This document shows, piece by piece, positions 1 through 10,765 of a DNA stretch of 12,108 nucleotides (position 1 is its first letter; every line of letters starts with the position of its first letter). This stretch comes from a virus, in the UHGV virus genome UHGV-1575633, one strand, 5' to 3'. The notes beneath the pieces were generated by a model, which did not search any database, had not been told where the DNA came from, and saw only the letters and a program-made list of their open reading frames with translations. Made by a program: the position numbers and the translations under genes.

Positions 1-453
1 AAGGCGTTCCTCGATATGCTGGCATGGTCAGAGGGAACTGATAACGGACGTCAGAAAACCAGAAATCATGGTTATGACGTCATTGTAGGCGGAGAGCTAT
101 TCACTGATTACTCCGATCACCCTCGCAAACTTGTCACGCTAAACCCAAAACTCAAATCAACAGCAGCCGGACGTTACCAGCTTCTTTCCCGTTGGTGGGA
201 TGCCTATCGTAAGCAGCTTGGCCTGAAAGATTTCTCTCCGAAAAGCCAGGACGCTGTGGCATTGCAGCAGATTAAAGAGCGTGGCGCTTTACCGATGATT
301 GATCGCGGTGATATTCGTCAGGCAATTGACCGTTGCAGCAATATCTGGGCTTCACTGCCGGGGGCTGGTTACGGTCAGTTCGAGCATAAGGCTGACAGCC
401 TGATTGCAAAATTCAAAGAGGCTGGCGGAACGGTCAGAGAGATTGATGTATGA
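1..453 (+). CDS. R: Endolysin, lambda R-type lytic transglycosylase (5' partial; starts upstream of window)
   Basis: Frame 1 is open from base 1 ([31 protein letters not shown]...GTVREIDV) and is near-identical, from memory, to the C-terminal ~150 aa of phage lambda R. The Met at 16 is internal, not the start. Confidence 0.9.
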
Positions 454-887
454 GCAGAGTAACCGCGATTATCTCCGCTCTGATTATCTGCATCATCGTC
501 TGCCTGTCATGGGCTGTTAATCATTACCGTGATAACGCCATCGCCTATAAAGAGCAGCGCGATAAGGCCACATCCACAATCGCTGACATGCAGAAGCGTC
601 AACGTGATGTAGCAGAACTCGACGCCAGATACACAAAGGAGCTTGCTGATGCTAACGCGACTATCGAAAGTCTCCGTGCTGATGTTTCTGCTGGTCGTAA
701 GCGCCTGCAAGTCTCCGCCACCTGTGCAAAGTCAACGGCCGGAGCCAGCAGCATGGGCGATGGAGAAAGCCCAAGACTTACAGCAGATGCTGAACTCAAT
801 TATTACCGTCTCCGAAGTGGAATCGACAGGATAACCGCGCAGGTTAACTACCTGCAGGAATACATCAGGACGCAATGCCTTCGATGA
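450..887 (+). CDS. Rz: Rz i-spanin (inner-membrane spanin subunit)
   Basis: ATG overlaps the R stop (ATGA). N-terminal TM segment ([20 protein letters not shown]) followed by a charged, helical periplasmic domain; N-terminus almost identical to lambda Rz as recalled. Confidence 0.9.
649..834 (+). CDS. Rz1: Rz1 o-spanin (outer-membrane lipoprotein) embedded in the +1 frame of Rz
   Basis: Entirely inside Rz in another frame. AAGGAG at 636-641 sits 7 nt before ATG 649. Signal peptide ends in lipobox-like VSAC, followed by proline-rich mature region ([16 protein letters not shown]), as in lambda Rz1. The track's TTG start at 643 is less likely. Confidence 0.8.
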
Positions 888-1062
888 TAGCGATAATTTT
901 ACTCATCATCCTTCACATCTGGCTCTGTAGACAGGGTGGTGATCACTTCTGGAGTGAATCCAGATTAAACATCTCATTGCTGATGCTTGATATTGAGCAT
1001 CTGGCGCGCGGTAAGGGGCTGCGTTGAGATAAGAGCCAGATCATTACAAATACCAGGATTTA

Positions 1063-1086
1063 GCCTCGCATTTGCGGGGCTTTTTT
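1063..1086 (+). terminator. Candidate rho-independent terminator downstream of Rz
   Basis: 7-bp GC-rich stem (1063-1069 pairs with 1074-1080, one G-U wobble), 4-nt loop, then six T at 1081-1086. Confidence 0.5.
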
Positions 1087-1232
1087 ACATCTGCAGTAAA
1101 CCGCGCATCGCAGCGCGTAACAATCCCGAGTCTTTCAGAAAGCTGAGCCTGAGAATTGCCGTATATGGTGGCGACCATCTCGGGGACGGCTTTTCTGTGC
1201 GAACAGGCTCATCTTTCTAAAAGGTAAACGCT

Positions 1233-1718
1233 ATGAATAACTTTGTTGAAATTACCTCAAGAATTGGTCGCATGTACCAAGATTTTCTTATAAGTGGAAA
1301 GGGGTCTGGCGACATCATAGAGGAAATTGACAAGCTAAGTGCAGAGCTGAGAAGGAATGGGTGTGTTAATTCTATCTTTTTTGAAACTTTGCTAAAGCAA
1401 GGCTTCATGTTTGACATGATTAATTACAACAAAGTCGCACCCAGTGCTTCGCAAAAATCATATGTGTACGTTCTGCATGCTGAAGATAGTGGGCTAACAA
1501 AAATAGGGTTTAGTCGCAGGGTTAATAAACGAATTTCAGAGATATCTCGCATGAGTGGTGGGAAGCTAAATCTAATTGCAAAGATTCCGGCCGATAGAGA
1601 GCTTGAAACCAAATTGCACCAAAAATATTACAACTATAGGTCGCACGGGGAGTGGTTTAGTCTCAATCGTTGTCATTTGAAAGAGCTAAAAGAAATGCCT
1701 GGTAACGAACTGAAATAA
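1233..1718 (+). CDS. Moron: T5orf172 / MUG113-type (divergent GIY-YIG-like) domain protein with ~75-aa N-terminal extension of unknown function
   Basis: 161-aa ORF with AAGG RBS 8 nt upstream. Residues 77-145 carry T5orf172-like motifs: YVYVL, KIGFS-RR, ELE-KLH, GEWF. Visibly more AT-rich than flanks (about 40% vs about 50% by eye) and uses AGA/AGG Arg codons rarely seen in the neighbouring phage genes. Confidence 0.7.
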   Translation: MNNFVEITSRIGRMYQDFLISGKGSGDIIEEIDKLSAELRRNGCVNSIFFETLLKQGFMFDMINYNKVAPSASQKSYVYVLHAEDSGLTKIGFSRRVNKRISEISRMSGGKLNLIAKIPADRELETKLHQKYYNYRSHGEWFSLNRCHLKELKEMPGNELK

Positions 1719-1918
1719 TCCCCGGACTCACTAATTAACAGCAGTACAGCGAAACAACCCAAGCCAGAAAGTGGGGAAATAACACTGGCAGCCACTGAAA
1801 GATGAACCTCCTGCCTTATGGCAAAAAAGATTCTTTGTGGTGGCGGACTGATGGAAAGACATCGGTTATTGCAGAGGCCATTCAATGAGTGGTCTCGACA
1901 ATGGCTTATACCCTACAC

Positions 1919-1944
1919 GGGATAACTTAACTGATATCCCTTTT
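1919..1944 (+). terminator. Weak hairpin plus T-tract, possible terminator of the moron transcript
   Basis: gggata (1919-1924) / tatccc (1935-1940) inverted repeat with 10-nt loop, then TTTT 1941-1944. Short AU-containing stem and large loop make this marginal. Confidence 0.25.
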
Positions 1945-1965
1945 AACGGATAAACGGAGCCAACA

Positions 1966-2208
1966 ATGGCAGAGATTATTCCCATGACTGAAGAACAGAA
2001 ATTCCAGTTAGAGATTTACAAACTGGTCATGAACCAGAACGCAGCCGCAGAAGAAGCATTTCAATTCATTGGCACTGACGAGCTGAAGCTTGAGCTATTT
2101 AAAATTCACTTCCAGTCAGGCGGCGCTAATTCAGATATCACGACCCGCACTATCGAAGCGGTGCGTAAATCGAAGGAAGCGTTAGACCTGTTCACTACCG
2201 GAGCATAA
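1966..2208 (+). CDS. Hypothetical small phage protein immediately upstream of small terminase
   Basis: 80-aa ORF with GGAG RBS (1957-1960), ending 2 nt before the terS ATG. No motif recognised. Confidence 0.55.
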   Translation: MAEIIPMTEEQKFQLEIYKLVMNQNAAAEEAFQFIGTDELKLELFKIHFQSGGANSDITTRTIEAVRKSKEALDLFTTGA

Positions 2209-2210
2209 AC

Positions 2211-2651
2211 ATGGCGCGCCCAACGAAGTATCAAGAGGCGTATGCCGAACAGGCACGCAAACTGTGCTTGCTGGGCTACACCGATGCAGAACTTGCTGAT
2301 TTCTTTGAAGTCAGTGAGTCAACTATTAACAAGTGGAAGCTTGATTATCCTAAGTTTTCGGAGTCCATAAAAAAGGGTAAGGCCGTCGCTGATGCAGAAG
2401 TTAGTGATCGTCTTTATCAACGCGCTATGGGCTTCGTGGCTCCAGACATCGATATTCGTGTTATTGAAAACAGAATTGTCGAAACTCCGCTTGAGAAGTA
2501 TTACCCGCCTGATACAACCGCCGCCATCTTCTGGCTTAAGAACCGACAGAAGGATAAATGGCGCGATAAGGTTGATCACGAGCTAACAGGCAAAGACGGC
2601 GGCGCAATTCAGATTGAAACATCACCGATGAGCACTCTATTCGGAAAATGA
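2211..2651 (+). CDS. Terminase small subunit
   Basis: 146-aa ORF directly upstream of and overlapping terL (ATGA at 2648). N-terminal HTH-like segment (YTDAELADFFEVSESTINKWK) typical of small terminase DNA-binding domains. Confidence 0.75.
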   Translation: MARPTKYQEAYAEQARKLCLLGYTDAELADFFEVSESTINKWKLDYPKFSESIKKGKAVADAEVSDRLYQRAMGFVAPDIDIRVIENRIVETPLEKYYPPDTTAAIFWLKNRQKDKWRDKVDHELTGKDGGAIQIETSPMSTLFGK

Positions 2652-4063
2652 CCACGATTAATCCTATCTTTGAACCGTTCATTGAGGCGCATCGCTACAA
2701 AGTCGCCAAAGGCGGTCGAGGTAGCGGTAAGTCATGGGCAATTGCGAGGCTGCTTGTTGAAGCGGCGCGTCGGCAGCCAGTGCGTATTCTCTGCGCTCGT
2801 GAACTGCAAAACAGTATCAGCGATTCGGTAATCCGGCTGCTTGAAGACACCATAGAGCGTGAAGGGTATACGGCTGAGTTTGAAATTCAGCGTTCCATGA
2901 TTCGTCATCTCGGAACGAATGCTGAGTTCATGTTCTACGGCATCAAAAACAACCCGACGAAGATTAAATCGCTCGAAGGCATTGATATCTGCTGGGTGGA
3001 AGAAGCGGAAGCGGTAACGAAGGAATCATGGGATATCCTGATACCAACCATCCGTAAGCCGTTCTCCGAAATATGGGTGAGCTTCAACCCTAAGAACATC
3101 CTCGACGATACCTATCAACGATTCGTTGTAAATCCTCCCGATGATATTTGTCTGCTGACGGTGAACTACACCGACAACCCGCACTTTCCTGAAGTTCTCC
3201 GTCTGGAGATGGAAGAGTGCAAACGCAGAAATCCGACACTGTATCGTCACATCTGGCTTGGTGAGCCAGTAAGCGCAAGTGATATGGCAATCATCAAACG
3301 TGAATGGCTTGAAGCTGCAACCGATGCGCACAAGAAACTCGGATGGAAAGCGAAAGGCGCTGTTGTTTCTGCGCATGACCCATCAGATACAGGGCCAGAT
3401 GCTAAAGGTTACGCATCGCGTCACGGTTCGGTAGTTAAGCGCATTGCCAAAGGTCTGCTGATGGATATCAACGAGGGTGCTGACTGGGCTACTTCGCTGG
3501 CGATTGAAGACGGCGCTGACCACTACCTGTGGGATGGTGATGGTGTTGGTGCGGGGCTGCGCAGACAGACAACGGAAGCATTCTCCGGTAAGAAAATCAC
3601 CGCCACGATGTTTAAGGGCAGCGAATCGCCATTCGATGAAGATGCACCGTATCAGGCCGGAGCATGGGCTGATGAAGTCGTACAGGGCGACAACGTTCGC
3701 ACTATTGGCGATGTGTTCCGCAATAAGCGAGCGCAATTCTATTACGCGCTGGCTGACAGGCTGTATCTGACATATCGGGCGGTTGTCCACGGTGAGTATG
3801 CAGACCCCGACGACATGCTGAGTTTCGACAAAGAAGCGATAGGCGAGAAGATGCTGGAGAAGCTGTTTGCAGAACTGACGCAGATTCAGCGCAAATTCAA
3901 TAATAACGGGAAGCTGGAGCTTATGACTAAGGTCGAAATGAAGCAGAAGCTCGGTATTCCATCTCCTAACCTGGCTGATGCGCTGATGATGTGTATGCAT
4001 TGCCCGGAGTCGGCTGCGCAACCCGACTATTCCAGTTACTCAATTCCTTGTGGTGTAGGTTGA
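2648..4063 (+). CDS. Terminase large subunit (Sf6/P22-type)
   Basis: 471 aa with Walker A P-loop KGGRGSGKS (residues 21-29) and Walker B-like ICWVEEAE; N-terminus closely resembles Sf6 gp2 as recalled. Confidence 0.9.
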   Translation: MTTINPIFEPFIEAHRYKVAKGGRGSGKSWAIARLLVEAARRQPVRILCARELQNSISDSVIRLLEDTIEREGYTAEFEIQRSMIRHLGTNAEFMFYGIKNNPTKIKSLEGIDICWVEEAEAVTKESWDILIPTIRKPFSEIWVSFNPKNILDDTYQRFVVNPPDDICLLTVNYTDNPHFPEVLRLEMEECKRRNPTLYRHIWLGEPVSASDMAIIKREWLEAATDAHKKLGWKAKGAVVSAHDPSDTGPDAKGYASRHGSVVKRIAKGLLMDINEGADWATSLAIEDGADHYLWDGDGVGAGLRRQTTEAFSGKKITATMFKGSESPFDEDAPYQAGAWADEVVQGDNVRTIGDVFRNKRAQFYYALADRLYLTYRAVVHGEYADPDDMLSFDKEAIGEKMLEKLFAELTQIQRKFNNNGKLELMTKVEMKQKLGIPSPNLADALMMCMHCPESAAQPDYSSYSIPCGVG

Positions 4064-4064
4064 T

Positions 4065-5774
4065 ATGGCAGAAAAAAAGATGACTGACTGGCATCGCAAG
4101 GTGCTGTGCAACTTTGATAATGCCTGGTCAGCAACGCAGGATATGCGTAAGCAGATTATTGAGGCTCAACGTTTCGTCCGGGTATCCGGCGCACAGTGGG
4201 AAGGCAGCACAAACGCTGGTTACTCATTTGATGAAGGCAGGTTTGAGCATTATCCGCGCTTTGAACTGAATAAGATTGCCCGTGAATGTGATCGCATCAT
4301 TGGCGAGTATCGACAGAATCGCATCAGCGTTAAATTCAGGCCGAAGGACGATAAGGCATCGGAAGCGTTAGCCGAAAAGATGAACGGCAAATTCCGCGCT
4401 GACTATCAGGAAACATCAGGTGGTGAAGCGTGTGATAACGCATTTGATGATGCTGTAACGGGCGGGTTCGGTTGTTTCCGCATGTGTGCTGATTACGAAG
4501 ATGAAATGGATCCGAGTAACGAGCAGCGACGCATCAGTCTTCTTCCTGTTTACGACCCGGCGACATGCGTCTTCTTCGATCAGGACAGCAAACAATATGA
4601 CCGCTCTGATGCTATGTGGGCTATGGAAATGTTCTCCATGACGCCTAAAGCGTTCGAGGCTGAATACCCTGATTCCATTGCGGCAAGCCTTTCTCGGGAT
4701 GACACTGGTACTCAGTATGACTGGTCAACGCCTGACGCCATCTATGTTGGACGTTACTACGAAGTTCGCATAGAGAAGGTGAAGCTCACGGCGTGGCGCA
4801 ACCCTGTTAGCGGAGAAACGGCAATCTATGATGAAGAGCAAATCAAAGATATTGTCGACGAGCTGACCGATGGTGCATTCGAACTGATTGGCGAGCGAAC
4901 GGTGAAGAAACGCCGCGTTTATTGCGGCCTTCTGTCTGGCGCTGAATGGCTGGAAGAACCGAAGCGTATTCCGGGCGAACATATTCCTCTCATCCCGGTA
5001 TATGGGCGTCGCTCATTTGTTGATAATCAGGAACGAATCGAAGGCCACGCAGCAAAAGCGATGGATGCACAGCGTCTTGAGAACCTGATGGTTTCCATGA
5101 TTGCAGATAACGCTACTCAGGCGGGCGGTGATGGCATTCCTATCGTGGATGTTGATTTCATTCCCGGTCCATTAATGAATCACTGGGCAGAGAGGAATAA
5201 GAAAAGACCTGCAGTTCTTCCCATGACCAGCAAGAAGGACAAAAACGGAACAGTCATTTCAGAAGCTCAGGTTGCTGGCTGGACACCTCCGACACAAATG
5301 CCTCCTGCTCTTGCCGGGCTATTGCAGTACACCGGAACGGCTATTCAGCAAATTACAGGTGCGTCGCAGCTTGAGAACATGCCGAGCAACGTCGCTACTG
5401 ATACCGTTGATAGCATTTTTAACCGGATGGACACGCAGTCCTATATCTACATGGACAACATGGCTAAATCTATGCGTCGCGCTGGCGTTGTGTGGCTTTC
5501 TATGGCGCGTGAAGTCTATGGCAGCGATACGCCGATGCGTATCGTTAATGAGGACGGCAGCGATGACGTGGCGCTGATGACTGGTGAAGTGGTTGACCGT
5601 CAGACAGGGCAGGTTATCGCGCTTAACGACCTTTCGCAGGGTAACTATGAAGTGACTGTCGATGTCGGTCAGTCGTTCGCTACTCGCCGTGATGCAACGG
5701 TTAAGTCGTTACTTTCCATGCTGGCACTTATCCCACCAGGAACGCCGAAGCTGCACAGATTGACTCTGACCTGA
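4065..5774 (+). CDS. Portal protein (P22 gp1-like), apparently C-terminally truncated (569 aa vs roughly 700+ aa in P22/Sf6)
   Basis: Collinear with P22 portal motifs as recalled (KRRRVY, GEHIPLIPVYG, PPGTPK), but the frame stops at 5772-5774 right after PPGTPK, where P22 continues into the C-terminal barrel. Confidence 0.8.
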   Translation: MAEKKMTDWHRKVLCNFDNAWSATQDMRKQIIEAQRFVRVSGAQWEGSTNAGYSFDEGRFEHYPRFELNKIARECDRIIGEYRQNRISVKFRPKDDKASEALAEKMNGKFRADYQETSGGEACDNAFDDAVTGGFGCFRMCADYEDEMDPSNEQRRISLLPVYDPATCVFFDQDSKQYDRSDAMWAMEMFSMTPKAFEAEYPDSIAASLSRDDTGTQYDWSTPDAIYVGRYYEVRIEKVKLTAWRNPVSGETAIYDEEQIKDIVDELTDGAFELIGERTVKKRRVYCGLLSGAEWLEEPKRIPGEHIPLIPVYGRRSFVDNQERIEGHAAKAMDAQRLENLMVSMIADNATQAGGDGIPIVDVDFIPGPLMNHWAERNKKRPAVLPMTSKKDKNGTVISEAQVAGWTPPTQMPPALAGLLQYTGTAIQQITGASQLENMPSNVATDTVDSIFNRMDTQSYIYMDNMAKSMRRAGVVWLSMAREVYGSDTPMRIVNEDGSDDVALMTGEVVDRQTGQVIALNDLSQGNYEVTVDVGQSFATRRDATVKSLLSMLALIPPGTPKLHRLTLT

Positions 5775-5779
5775 TTTCC

Positions 5780-6667
5780 ATGGTCACGCAGCGTGCTACT
5801 AACGTGATCACAATGGCTGACTCAACCACTGGTTCACAGGGCCGTGATTTGTGGAACTGTGCGGCAGGTATTGATGCCACCATGACGGCGATTGGTGTAC
5901 CACAGGGTATCAACCGCCGCTCTTTCTGGAACCCCTTCAACTACAAAGACCTTGCTGGCGAGCTTGGTCACCGTGCCTATGCTCAGGGCGCAACCCTGAC
6001 AGCATACGAAAAAGCGCAGATCCCTCCGGTTGCGTCCTTCGATAGCTACAAGACCGATATTTCTGGTCGTGTTCCGAAGGGTACAGCAACTTCCCTGACG
6101 CTGGCGGCTGAACCTGCGCACAAGGTTGAAGCGAAAGATGCTAACGATATGCCAGTGGATAACCGGCAGGGGACCATTACGGTATCTGCTGAAGGTTTGC
6201 AGGTTGGCGATGCGTTCACCATTGCTGGCGTGAATTCTGTACACCAGATCACCAAAGACACCACCGGGCAGCCGCAGGTATTCCGCGTTCTGGCAGTAAG
6301 CGGAACGACAGTAACTATCTCCCCGAAAATTCTGCCGCCTGACAACGCAGATGTCGCCAGCCGTCCATATGCAAACGTTGATGCTAACGCGGCAAATGGT
6401 GCAGCAATTACCATTCTCAACAAGAATGCCGCACCGGCTAACCTGTTCTGGGCTGATGGTTCTGTTGAGCTGATGTACGGCAAACTGGCGTTCCCGACTG
6501 GTCAGGGTCCACAGGTAATGACAGCAACCACCGAGCAGGGCGCTACGCTGATCATGTCTTACGCCTTCGACCACATCAAAGGCGTAACCACTGCGCGTTT
6601 CACCACTCTGTACGGTTGCTCTGTACTGGTTCCTGAATATACGGGCATCGTTATTGCCGGGCAGTAA
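5780..6667 (+). pseudogene. Coat (major capsid) protein fragment, P22 gp5-like, lacking roughly the first 125-130 residues
   Basis: Homology to P22 coat starts near the ORF start (NVIT...SFWNPFNYKDLAG vs P22 LVIT...SYFFNPQDYKKAG) and continues to the C-terminus (PYANVDANAANGAAITILN, NLFWADGSVEL). No RBS; frame is open from 5705, overlapping the portal end. No scaffold gene precedes it. Confidence 0.65.
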
Positions 6668-6671
6668 TTTT

Positions 6672-6697
6672 GGTGGGGCTTCGGCCCCATTTTTATT
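6672..6697 (+). terminator. Rho-independent terminator / stabilising hairpin after the coat gene
   Basis: GGGGC (6675-6679) / GCCCC (6684-6688) stem, extendable by T-A and G-U pairs, with TTCG tetraloop (6680-6683) and a T-run at 6690-6694, 5 nt after the coat stop. Confidence 0.6.
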
Positions 6698-6708
6698 GGG
6701 AGAAGACA

Positions 6709-6897
6709 ATGGCACGAACAATGCTCTATAAGCCTGGCAACATGATCACCTGTGGTCAGTTTGCTGTCGATTACATCATTGTTGATGACGAAGAAGTTAA
6801 ATCTCACCTGAAAAAAGGTTGGGTAAAAACTCCTGAAGAAACCGCAACGAAGCAAAAAGTGGCTAAGGCGGAAGAAGATGGCGAAAACGAAGGGTGA
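6709..6897 (+). CDS. Hypothetical small acidic protein (62 aa) between coat and gp4
   Basis: ATG 6709 preceded by GGAG (6699-6702, 6-nt spacer); 3' end overlaps gp4 start by 20 nt in another frame. The track's TTG start at 6670 lies inside the terminator hairpin and is rejected. Confidence 0.45.
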   Translation: MARTMLYKPGNMITCGQFAVDYIIVDDEEVKSHLKKGWVKTPEETATKQKVAKAEEDGENEG

Positions 6898-7339
6898 TCT
6901 CGTTCTAAAGGCTTTACGAAAAGCTGGGCTGTATTCCAATGCCACGTTGACAGATGCTGACCCTCAGGCAATTGAAGATGCCATTAATGACCTCGAAGAC
7001 ATGATGGCAGCATGGCAGGCGAAAGGTATCGAGCTTGGATATCAGTTTGCGGATACAGAAAACGGCATCATGCCGTTACCTGACGATGATTCAGGTATCC
7101 CTGCATGGGCAAATGATGGCGTGGCTTTGAAGCTCGCTGTGCAAGTGTGCATGGATAACGTCATTCAGCCGTCAGACGCTCTCCTGACCGCTGCTGACAG
7201 TGCATATCAGACAATCTGTATCGCTTTAACCAAAATACCACCACTTGAGCGGCGAAATGACATGCCTCGCGGTAGTGGTAACAAAAGCGCGTTTACGTGG
7301 AATCGGTTTTACATCGAGAAAGATGATCCGAGTACGTGA
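6878..7339 (+). CDS. Head completion / tail accessory factor (P22 gp4-like)
   Basis: 153 aa; N-terminus MAKTKGDLVLKALRKAG...ATLTDADPQAIEDAINDLEDMMAAW parallels recalled P22 gp4, and the PRGSGNKSAFTWN motif is near the C-terminus. Confidence 0.8.
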   Translation: MAKTKGDLVLKALRKAGLYSNATLTDADPQAIEDAINDLEDMMAAWQAKGIELGYQFADTENGIMPLPDDDSGIPAWANDGVALKLAVQVCMDNVIQPSDALLTAADSAYQTICIALTKIPPLERRNDMPRGSGNKSAFTWNRFYIEKDDPST

Positions 7340-7348
7340 GGTGAATAA

Positions 7349-8767
7349 ATGCCGATTCAGCAACTTCCGCTTATGAAAGGTGTCGGCAAAGACTTCCGAA
7401 ACGCCGACTATATCGACTATCTGCCAGTGAATATGCTGGCTACACCAAAAGAAATCCTTAACAGCAGCGGATATCTTCGCTCATTCCCGGGCATTGCCAA
7501 ACGTTCTGATGTGAACGGTATATCGCGCGGCGTCGAGTACAACATGGCGCAGAGTGCTGTATATCGCGTGTGTGGGGGCAAGCTGTATAAGGGCGAAAGC
7601 GAAGTCGGTGATGTTGCCGGAAGTGGTCGTGTATCAATGGCGCATGGTCGGACATCTCAGGCTGTAGGCGTTAATGGTCAACTGGTAGAGTATCGCTATG
7701 ATGGCACGGTTAAAACCGTCTCAAACTGGCCTGCAGATAGCGGATTCACTCAGTATGAGTTAGGTTCGGTTCGCGACATTACGCGCTTACGTGGGCGTTA
7801 TGCGTGGTCAAAAGACGGCACTGATTCATGGTTTATCACTGACCTTGAAGACGAATCGCATCCTGACCGTTACAGCGCACAATATCGTGCCGAGTCTCAG
7901 CCGGACGGCATCATCGGTATCGGGACATGGCGAGACTTCATCGTCTGCTTTGGTTCATCGACTATTGAATACTTCTCCCTGACTGGCGCAACCACCGTTG
8001 GTGCTGCTTTGTATGTCGCACAGCCATCACTGATGGTGCAAAAAGGCATCGCCGGGACTTACTGCAAAACGCCGTTTGCTGATTCGTATGCGTTCATCAG
8101 CAATCCGGCAACGGGTGCGCCGTCTGTATACATTATCGGCTCCGGTCAGGTGTCACCAATCGCCAGCGCGAGCATTGAGAAAATTCTCCGCTCCTACACT
8201 GCTGATGAACTGGCTGATGGTGTGATGGAGTCTCTGCGATTTGATGCGCATGAGCTGCTGATTATCCACCTTCCGCGCCATGTTCTCGTGTACGACGCAT
8301 CTTCAAGCGCCAATGGTCCGCAATGGTGTGTGTTGAAAACTGGCTTGTATGACGATGTGTACCGCGCTATCGACTTCATTTACGAAGGCAATCAGATAAC
8401 GTGCGGTGATAAGCTGGAGTCCGTGACCGGGAAATTGCAATTCGACATCAGCAGCCAGTACGACAAGCAACAGGAACACCTGCTGTTTACTCCACTGTTC
8501 AAAGCGGATAACGCCAGATGCTTCGATCTGGAGGTGGAATCATCCACTGGCGTAGCTCAGTACGCCGACCGCCTGTTCCTCTCTGCAACCACTGACGGCA
8601 TAAATTACGGGCGTGAGCAGATGATTGAACAGAATGAACCGTTCATTTACGACAAACGTGTTTTGTGGAAGCGTGTCGGGCGCATCAGGAAAAATATCGG
8701 TTTCAAATTGCGCGTTATCACGAAGTCACCTGTCACTCTGTCTGGCGCTCAGATAAGGATTGAGTAA
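7349..8767 (+). CDS. Packaged-DNA stabilisation / tail accessory protein (P22 gp10-like)
   Basis: 472 aa, same length as P22 gp10, with N-terminus [42 protein letters not shown] as recalled; GAGG-type RBS upstream. Confidence 0.85.
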
Positions 8768-9615
8768 TGGCGGATTCGAATCTCAATGTGCCGGTAATCA
8801 TTCAGGCTGCACGGCTCGACACATCAGTCCTTCCACGCAATATCTTCTCGCAGTCGTATCTGCTTTACGTTATCGCACAGGGCACTGATGTTGGTAACGT
8901 GGCTAACAAGGCCAACGAGGCCGGACAGGGCGCTTATGATGCACAGGTCAGGAACGATGAGCAGGATGTGATTCTCGCTGACCATGAGCAGCGAATTTCT
9001 GCTGCGGAAGCAACGCTTGTTAATCATGAGGAGCGAATCAGCCAGGCAGAATCAACTCTTCAGGACCATGAAACACGAATAGCTCAGAATGAAAGCGATA
9101 TTGCGTCGCTTGATACCAGAGTTCAGTCGCTGGAATCGCAGGTTTCAGACCATGAAACGCGCATTAATGCTCTGGAGTATGCCACTACGCGCAAGAAGTC
9201 AGAAGTTGTTTACTCTGGCGTATCAGTAACCATCCCGACAGCGCCGACCAACCTTGTTAGCCTGCTGAAAACGCTCACGCCGTCATCCGGCACGTTGGCA
9301 CCATTCTTCGACACCGTTAACAACAAGATGGTTGTGTTCAACGAGAACAAAACCTTGTTCTTCAAGCTGTCGATTGTCGGGACGTGGCCCAGCGGAACCG
9401 CCAACAGGTCAATGCAGCTAACCTTTTCCGGCTCTGTCCCTGACACACAGGTCAGCAGTCGTAATGCGGCGACAACAACCGACAACATCCTGTTAGCTAC
9501 GTTCTTCAGTGTGGATAAAGACGGCTTTCTTGCCACAAATGGCAGTACGTTAGCCATTCAGTCAAATGGTGCGGCGTTTACTGCCACAACCATCAAGATA
9601 ATCGCGGAGCAGTGA
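8767..9615 (+). CDS. Tail needle (P22 gp26-like N-terminus, coiled-coil repeats, Sf6-type C-terminal knob)
   Basis: 282 aa. N-terminus [43 protein letters not shown] matches the conserved gp26 N-domain; residues 72-137 carry repeated DHExRI units; the C-terminal ~140 aa are beta-rich, matching the length of the Sf6 knob-bearing needle. Confidence 0.85.
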
Positions 9616-10070
9616 TGATTCAGTTCAAACAAACGCGAAACATCGACCTGATCGAAGCAGTCGGAAATCACCCTGACATTATCGCCGGTAGCAACAACGG
9701 TGATGGGTACGACTACAAGCCTGAATGCCGTTACTTTGAGGTTAACGTGCACGGTCAGTTTGGTGGCATTGTTTACTATCAGGAGATTCAGCCGCTGACA
9801 TTAGATTGCCACGCCATGTACCTGCCAGAGATTCGCGGCTTCAGCAAGGAAATTGGGCTGGCGTTCTGGCGATACATTCTGACTAACACCACCGTTCAGT
9901 GCGTAACATCGTTCGCTGCACGCAAATTCCGACACGGTCAGATGTACTGCGCAATGATTGGCCTTAAGCGTGTAGGAACCATCAAGAAATACTTCAAAGG
10001 CGTGGATGACGTGACTTTTTACAGCGCCACACGCGAAGAACTAATCGACTTCCTGAATCACGGGAGATAG
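9615..10070 (+). CDS. P22 gp14-like protein (position-based assignment)
   Basis: 151-aa ORF (from ATG 9615; the track uses GTG 9612) in the position gp14 occupies between gp26 and gp7 in P22. Confidence 0.65.
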   Translation: MIQFKQTRNIDLIEAVGNHPDIIAGSNNGDGYDYKPECRYFEVNVHGQFGGIVYYQEIQPLTLDCHAMYLPEIRGFSKEIGLAFWRYILTNTTVQCVTSFAARKFRHGQMYCAMIGLKRVGTIKKYFKGVDDVTFYSATREELIDFLNHGR

Positions 10071-10072
10071 CC

Positions 10073-10765
10073 ATGTTATATGCATTTAAGCTGGGCAGAA
10101 AACTGCGCGGCGAGGAACCTTATTGCCCTGAAAAAGGCGGGAAAGGTGGCAGTTCTGATAAAAGCGCAAAGTATGCAGCAGAAGCCCAGAAGTATGCTGC
10201 AGACCTGCAAAATCAGCAGTGGCAGACGATCATGAAAAACCTTGCTCCATTCACGCCTCTTGCGGAGCAGTATGTTAACCAGCTTCAGAACCTTTCCAGT
10301 TTAGAAGGTCAGGGGCAGGCACTTAATCAGTATTACAACTCTCAGCAGTATAAAGACCTTGCAGGGCAGGCGCGTTACCAGAGTCTTGCTGCTGCGGAGG
10401 CGACGGGTGGACTTGGTTCGACAGCCACAAGCAATCAACTGGCTACGATCGCGCCGACACTCGGTCAGTCTTGGTTATCAAATCAGATGAGCAATTACAA
10501 CAATCTGGCAAACGTTGGGCTTGGTGCGCTGCAAGGTCAGGCAAACGCCGGGCAGACGTACGCCAACAACATGAGCAGCATTGCACAGCAAAGCGCAGCT
10601 CTTGCCGCTGCTAATGCCAATAAACCATCAAGTCTTCAGACTGCAATTAGCGGTGGCACGTCTGGTGCGATTGCCGGTGCAGGTCTTGCCAGCCTTTTGG
10701 GAGCATCAACGCCTTGGGGCGCTGGCATTGGTGCTGGTATCGGATTGCTTGGCTCGTTGTTTTAA
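10073..10765 (+). CDS. Ejection (injection) protein, P22 gp7-like
   Basis: 230 aa; N-terminus MLYAFKLGRKLRGEEPYCPEKGGKGGS as recalled for P22 gp7; Q/N-rich middle and Gly/Ala-rich hydrophobic C-terminus; GGGAG RBS upstream. Confidence 0.8.
   Translation: MLYAFKLGRKLRGEEPYCPEKGGKGGSSDKSAKYAAEAQKYAADLQNQQWQTIMKNLAPFTPLAEQYVNQLQNLSSLEGQGQALNQYYNSQQYKDLAGQARYQSLAAAEATGGLGSTATSNQLATIAPTLGQSWLSNQMSNYNNLANVGLGALQGQANAGQTYANNMSSIAQQSAALAAANANKPSSLQTAISGGTSGAIAGAGLASLLGASTPWGAGIGAGIGLLGSLF

Follow-up and report, generated by a model that had tools for sequence, protein, structure and literature searches.

A single 1,850-bp deletion has very probably turned a P22-like prophage of E. coli into a heritable, head-defective element in one closely related lineage. 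The DNA analysed, a stretch of 12,108 bases that we call the window, is 100% identical over its full length to positions 891690–903797 of the chromosome of E. coli JKHS016 (NZ_CP147059.1). The event would have been a spontaneous illegitimate recombination, essentially without homology, inside the late operon of the integrated prophage. Portal codon 562 is now followed, out of frame, by coat codon 113, and the C-terminal 170 residues of the portal, the entire scaffolding gene and the N-terminal 112 residues of the coat are gone. With neither coat nor scaffold, no procapsid would form and the prophage would be defective for virion production.

Results

The window falls within the late part of a P22-like prophage (Lederbergvirus; Sf101/CUS-3/phiv205-1 type) that lies between sbcB and dacD in JKHS016. 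The phage records nearest to it, phiv205-1, vB_EcoP-720R6, CUS-3, Kapi1 and Sf101, all belong to Lederbergvirus. The prophage begins at its left end with an integrase, followed by an early region with RecT, sieB and cI, cro and cII-type regulators, a middle part with replication genes, nin genes and Q, and a late region with lysis genes, terminase, tail and ejection genes and the tailspike; an acyltransferase and gtrABC occupy the right end. The host-relevant genes sieB, gtrABC and the acyltransferase are still carried, all of them outside the window. An Rfam scan of the window returned no match. According to the paper that describes it (PMC11832570), JKHS016 is an ESBL-producing isolate collected in 2015 from hospital wastewater in Japan, and its genome is an Illumina and ONT (Nanopore) hybrid assembly. 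The topic of that paper is quinolone-resistance genes, and its available passages make no mention of the prophage.

Two open reading frames on the plus strand represent the head module, one of 569 aa (4065–5774) and one of 295 aa (5780–6667), with a gap of 5 nt between them, as the original prediction had described. Colinearity with intact phages breaks sharply here, the DNA being portal up to 5751 and coat, from codon 113 onward, from 5750. By BLASTN, window 2589–5751 corresponds to Sf101 367–3529 and window 5750–8975 to Sf101 5380–8609; at the phiv205-1 locus, window 1728–5749 corresponds to 3664–7685 and window 5750–8990 to 9538–12779. Gene order in Sf101 (KJ832078), CUS-3 (CP000711) and phiv205-1 (MN340231) is the same as in the window on both sides of the break, but these phages have the segment from portal codon 562 to coat codon 113, scaffold included, that the window lacks. 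Relative to Sf101 the missing segment measures 1,850 bp, close to the 1.7–1.8 kb first estimated, and since 1850 mod 3 = 2 the frame is shifted. The anticipated position of the junction, roughly 5750–5800, was similarly close, BLASTN and the three-way comparison placing it at 5750/5751. Both flanks span kilobases at 93–97% DNA identity to the reference phages; because kilobase flanks are 94–97% identical to these phages, the junction is not a chance pattern.

The breakpoint was resolved by aligning the window with intact phages, as had been proposed, using Sf101 and phiv205-1. This three-way comparison, together with the overlap of the BLAST segments, places the deletion junction at 5750–5751 (plus strand) on a 2-nt microhomology, GC, common to the portal and coat parents. 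Base by base, the left parent reads ...GAACGCCGAAGC up to the breakpoint and ACGACC... beyond it, the right parent reads ...GCGCCTTGC and then TGCACAG..., and the window reads ...GAACGCCGAAGCTGCACAG... across the junction. Taking phiv205-1 as reference instead reduces the microhomology to 1 nt (C), the parental sequence at the breakpoint being reconstructed from relatives. Indeed, the pre-deletion sequence had to be derived from Sf101 and phiv205-1 because 5,426 complete E. coli genomes, searched for a near-identical intact parent prophage, contained none. A search for homology at the breakpoint returned GC (2 nt), or the imperfect CGCC..GC if one indel is permitted. By our own arithmetic, about 16% of chance joins would show a microhomology of 2 nt or more, and hence the overlap provides no evidence for a homology-driven or site-specific deletion. 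Since the ends share just 1–2 nt, the deletion looks like the product of illegitimate rather than homologous or site-specific recombination.

Upstream of the junction, alignment to Sf101, Pfam and RefSeq all identify the 5′ part of the portal gene (4065–5749, plus strand; codons 1–562, ending at 5750), the last 170 of 732 residues being lost. Portal residues 1–562 are 96.6% identical to the Sf101 portal, the Pfam P22_portal profile (PF16510) is covered from 2 to 523 of 594, and RefSeq describes the remnant as 'portal protein, incomplete, missing C-terminus'. On translation, the frame then enters coat DNA out of frame (5751–5774, plus strand) and acquires the tail LHRLTLT before a TGA at 5772–5774. 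Where the Sf101 portal goes on ...PPGTPKHDLVSS..., the window has ...PPGTPKLHRLTLT followed by the stop. The predicted 569-aa frame is thus correct, but its stop does not directly follow PPGTPK, these seven codons intervening. The product is well short of a full-length portal of about 725–733 aa with crown and C-terminal barrel; other members of the cluster have 724–733 aa.

Known portal structures indicate what the truncation takes away. The Sf101 portal aligns near full length to both the Sf6 portal (7sfs; E = 1e-248) and the P22 portal (3lj5), and is nearer to Sf6 gp3 (7sfs) than to P22 gp1 (3lj5). An engineered P22 portal core (residues 1–602; PDB 4v4k, 5jj1), which is also without the C-terminal helical barrel, aligns to Sf101 portal residues 12–613. 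Compared with this core, the JKHS016 portal is truncated at 562, about 50 residues shorter, and carries seven foreign residues. Because residue 562 lies about 50 residues deeper than the ends of these barrel-less constructs, the truncation removes the whole C-terminal helical barrel and the segment preceding it.

Downstream of the junction, the same three sources identify the 3′ part of the coat gene, codons 113–417 plus the stop (5750–6667, plus strand). The open reading frame at 5780–6667 corresponds to coat Met123–Gln417, with an internal start, and is 99.7% identical to the Sf101 coat. The Pfam P22_CoatProtein profile (PF11651) is covered from 127 to 423 of 423, and RefSeq annotates the remnant, from window 5750, as 'P22 phage major capsid protein family protein, incomplete, missing N-terminus'. 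The match to coat only had been foreseen, although homology was thought to start at about residue 130 rather than at codon 113, or Met123 for the open reading frame. In the order of the HK97 fold and the P22 coat, residues 1–112 correspond to the N-arm, E-loop and initial elements of the P-domain, and the N-arm of the P22 coat is the region that contacts the scaffolding protein. A full-length coat of this type has about 417–430 aa and includes the N-terminal portion of the HK97 fold, which is lacking in the remnant. Relatives have a portal of 732 aa, a scaffold of 297 aa and a coat of 417 aa, from which the P22/Sf6-type lengths initially assumed (700+, about 300 and about 420–430 aa) differ slightly. 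The coat is of the CUS-3 type (Sf101 coat against PDB 8skg, E = 6e-267), with its inserted I-domain at about residues 222–337 (6mnt). No Shine-Dalgarno sequence is evident for the 295-aa coat open reading frame; speculatively, the coat fragment could at most arise by reinitiation 5 nt past the portal stop.

The 297-aa scaffold gene expected between portal and coat is absent from the window. In tblastn searches of a 52-kb region that contains the complete prophage with its flanks, the Sf101 scaffold found nothing better than E = 6.9, and portal 563–732, scaffold and coat N-terminus together found nothing better than E = 0.1. The sole real match in these 52 kb came from coat 1–122 as the query and consisted of the ten residues 113–122 right after the junction. 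By megablast, the portal and coat flanks are each present once in JKHS016. The alignments, and the lack of any tblastn copy elsewhere in the prophage, bear out the proposed loss of the portal C-terminus, the whole scaffold and the coat N-terminus.

By analogy with P22, the prophage is almost certainly unable to build heads, as the functions of genes 1, 8 and 5 would all be lost. In P22, mutants in gene 5 (coat) form no shells and those in gene 8 (scaffold) form aberrant ones; gene 1 (portal) mutants yield procapsids into which DNA is not packaged.

 The terminase small (146 aa) and large (471 aa) subunit genes (2211–4063, plus strand) are apparently intact, with lengths as in phiv205-1 and Sf101 and with the Terminase_3 profile covered from 2 to 201 of 201. 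Between 6878 and 10765 (plus strand), Pfam identifies genes for a gp4-like protein (153 aa), a gp10-like protein (472 aa), a tail needle with an Sf6-type knob (282 aa), a gp14-like protein (151 aa) and a gp7-like ejection protein (230 aa). Profile coverage for these genes is full or near full, and their Pfam matches and lengths are equal in the other samples described below. The gp20-like (456 aa), gp16-like (614 aa) and tailspike (727 aa) proteins are likewise full length against relatives and Pfam profiles. PGAP flags just the portal and coat remnants in the late region, both as partial pseudogenes; elsewhere in the prophage, outside the window, its sole pseudogene call concerns a holE-like theta subunit gene with an internal stop. 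Late gene order, from the terminases through the tailspike, matches Sf101 and phiv205-1 save for the deleted segment. The expectation that the packaging, tail-needle and ejection genes are intact agrees with their full length against Pfam and relatives and with the lack of a PGAP flag.

The genes for integration, immunity and replication, for lysis, packaging, tail and ejection, and for O-antigen modification all appear intact. In lambda and P22, Q-modified RNA polymerase reads through terminators, and so the late genes downstream of the deletion should still be transcribed upon induction. With one lesion in the late region and the element otherwise complete, the prophage represents a very early stage of decay.

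The deleted arrangement is rare among finished genomes. Our set of 5,426 complete E. coli genomes contains 424 with this portal/coat type; the flanks match as separate places in 423 of these and are joined in JKHS016 only. The portal part occurs in about 417 complete E. coli genomes and the coat part in about 400, the nearest intact relatives in this set reaching 98.1% identity for the portal part and 98.6% for the coat side. The comparison with related strains that had been suggested at the outset thus finds full-length genes in more than 400 complete genomes, and the junction in JKHS016 alone.

Searches for carriers, by a scan for the junction and by exact-protein look-up, recovered the same layout of a 569-aa portal frame, a 5-nt gap and a 295-aa coat frame in five other accessions. 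These are 99.97–100% identical to JKHS016 over 2.2–15.9 kb. They comprise the Logan assemblies DRR089059 (0 differences over 15.9 kb compared), ERR589753 (0 over 2.2 kb) and SRR35196807 (2 over 10.9 kb), a MEGAHIT-style contig of the ENA metagenome assembly ERZ27262414 (3 over 9.5 kb) and a SPAdes-style metagenome contig, ERZ773221 NODE-2059 (1 over 12.7 kb). The last of these was found by an exact match to the junction 31-mer and runs colinearly with JKHS016 through the join; the other four were found by exact-protein look-up, and all four contain the junction 41-mer. Contigs of the other carriers end inside the prophage, short of host DNA. The junction 31-mer had 0 matches in the GTDB species representatives, an uninformative result in a set with one genome per species. 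DRR089059, being 100% identical to JKHS016, could be the same isolate.

Discussion

The deletion is genuine and heritable, and not an assembly artefact. A misjoin of portal and coat that hides an intact head module would fit the occurrence of the junction in just 1 of 424 complete genomes. The identical junction, however, is present in five other assemblies with different pipelines and accessions, several of the carriers differ from JKHS016 by 1–3 SNPs, and JKHS016 itself was assembled from short and long reads together. Moreover, the breakpoints contain no repeat able to collapse an assembly, the shared sequence being 2 nt. Because different pipelines and samples share the join and no breakpoint repeat could bring about a misjoin, we give this explanation practically no chance. 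Just as implausible is a naturally short architecture, in which portal and coat are normally of this length and the scaffold function resides elsewhere. Nothing beyond the two open reading frames speaks for it, whereas the flanks are 94–98% identical in DNA to phages and prophages with 732-, 297- and 417-aa genes, the portal frame ends in seven out-of-frame codons of coat DNA, and the Pfam matches break off at 523 of 594 in the portal profile and begin only at 127 of 423 in that of the coat. Nor does tblastn over 52 kb find a scaffold homologue in the prophage, and the other carriers are near-identical copies of one element only.

A deletion may also result from illegitimate recombination between two co-resident P22-like genomes. 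The best intact match to the portal (98.1%) is in SW4848 and a group with an O25b:H4-ST131 strain among its members, the best intact match to the coat (98.6%) is in GPEC172 and thus in a different genome, and the strains that match the two 300-bp flanks at 100% form disjoint sets. Yet mosaicism is normal in this phage group, so differing best matches are expected anyway; a colinear loss of 1,850 bp is the outcome of a simple deletion, and JKHS016 is without a second copy of the module. We regard such an intermolecular origin as improbable, and only marginally better than the notion that the element is a defective phage spreading horizontally on portal, scaffold and coat supplied by a co-infecting relative. 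That lifestyle would be in keeping with near-identical copies in at least five other accessions and with intact terminase, tail, ejection and tailspike genes, but megablast finds no second P22-like portal or coat in JKHS016, 0–3 SNPs over 9–16 kb are equally compatible with one recent clone, and a random frame-shifting deletion shows no feature of an evolved satellite. It is no less doubtful that more than passive decay is at work here in general, whether through such helper-dependent spread or through a portal fragment without its barrel, and perhaps a coat fragment made by reinitiation, that act as dominant-negative assembly poisons; the sole hint of either is near-unchanged persistence in at least five other public samples. 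Were the fragments poisons, a superinfecting lambdoid or P22-like phage would trans-activate the late operon, with abortive protection of the host as the consequence. We infer instead a simple deletion within one prophage, inherited vertically in one lineage; that it is recent is the best reading.

Formation of a defective prophage by internal deletion is standard, and the present case is ordinary prophage decay. RefSeq PGAP already marks both remnants as incomplete, with the boundary at window 5750. What is added here is the exact breakpoint, the size of the deletion, the exclusion of an artefact and the presence of the same deleted element in several further public datasets; our search of the literature turned up no account of this particular portal–coat lesion. 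Prophage surveys should list the prophage of JKHS016 and its relatives as defective in virion production. Tools that count phage genes would call it intact, since it spans about 37 kb and has an integrase as well as terminase, tail and lysis genes. With one mapped lesion and near-zero homology at the junction, it offers a clean example of very early prophage decay, and the 31-nt junction sequence is usable as a lineage marker in metagenomes.

DLP12, Rac and Qin of E. coli K-12 are lambdoid remnants with internal deletions that have lost most of their genomes. The JKHS016 prophage resembles them in having morphogenesis genes deleted, in persisting in the chromosome and in keeping some functional genes. 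Unlike them, it has one 1.85-kb lesion and one small pseudogene. Large deletions are reported for experimentally evolved populations of phage Sf6, which are described as having faster life cycles (PMC5630979). The two cases have in common a spontaneous, kilobase-scale deletion in a headful-packaging P22-like genome, but the JKHS016 deletion hits essential head genes and can persist only as a prophage. Apart from the deletion, the window differs from its intact relatives in the C-terminus of the tail needle, where it has the Sf6-type knob, and it carries a GIY-YIG/T5orf172 gene in the place where phiv205-1 has rha.

Differences from intact relatives and their annotation

We compared the late region with phiv205-1 and Sf101, two intact phages. 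The tail needle gene (8767–9615, +) encodes a 282-aa protein with a Sf6-type knob domain (Pfam Phage_tail_NK, residues 108–282), whereas the needle genes at the equivalent position in Sf101 (212 aa) and phiv205-1 are shorter. By BLASTN, DNA similarity to both phages drops out from ~8976–8991 to ~9612–9614 and returns thereafter. The C terminus of the needle is the product of mosaic exchange.

A second break in DNA similarity, found by BLASTN against phiv205-1, spans 1241–1727. Here, between the lysis cassette on one side and the terminase genes on the other, lies a 161-aa GIY-YIG-type nuclease ORF (1233–1718, +; Pfam T5orf172/MUG113), whereas phiv205-1 carries rha in the corresponding place. 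The ORF appears to be an exchanged accessory gene, or possibly a homing nuclease.

The small-terminase position is occupied by a 146-aa ORF (2211–2651, +), annotated by RefSeq as 'hypothetical protein', for which a Pfam profile search returned no match. Its counterpart in the public phiv205-1 record (MN340231; 4147–4587 of that locus) carries the label 'HNH homing endonuclease', and that record's coat gene (9202–10455) appears as 'terminase small subunit'. Both labels look like public-record mis-annotations.

Opposite the coat fragment, on the minus strand, runs an ORF with a TTG start (5834–6721), in all likelihood a mechanical shadow ORF. The two ORFs are of equal length, 295 aa.

Portal-gene matches and other lesions in the prophage

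The 90% cluster that includes the portal also contains a 662-aa 'portal protein, partial' (P0009), recorded on four contigs, the longest of 5,186,416 bp. With this partial portal on record, there are therefore other, independent portal truncations in this P22-like prophage family. A further match to the portal gene, a 240-bp stretch at ~5389–5628, is found in the 254-kb record of Aeromonas phage AP1 (MT713136.1, 250640–250879), where a 96.3% identical sequence is annotated as 'hypothetical protein'. The match is odd, AP1 being an unrelated jumbo phage, and the portal-like stretch may represent contamination or a chimeric end of the AP1 record.

Beyond the portal/coat lesion, the sole further lesion flagged by PGAP in the prophage lies outside the window: a holE-like pseudogene ('DNA polymerase III subunit theta') interrupted by an internal stop (NZ_CP147059.1 877155–877436, corresponding to 17–298 of L003, a region of the JKHS016 chromosome). 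About 1 kb upstream of the start of the window, L003 also includes ~1 kb without an annotated feature (13200–14220), located between the Q antiterminator gene and the holin gene. In lambdoid phages the Q-to-holin region contains the late promoter and a terminator, and sometimes tRNAs or morons.
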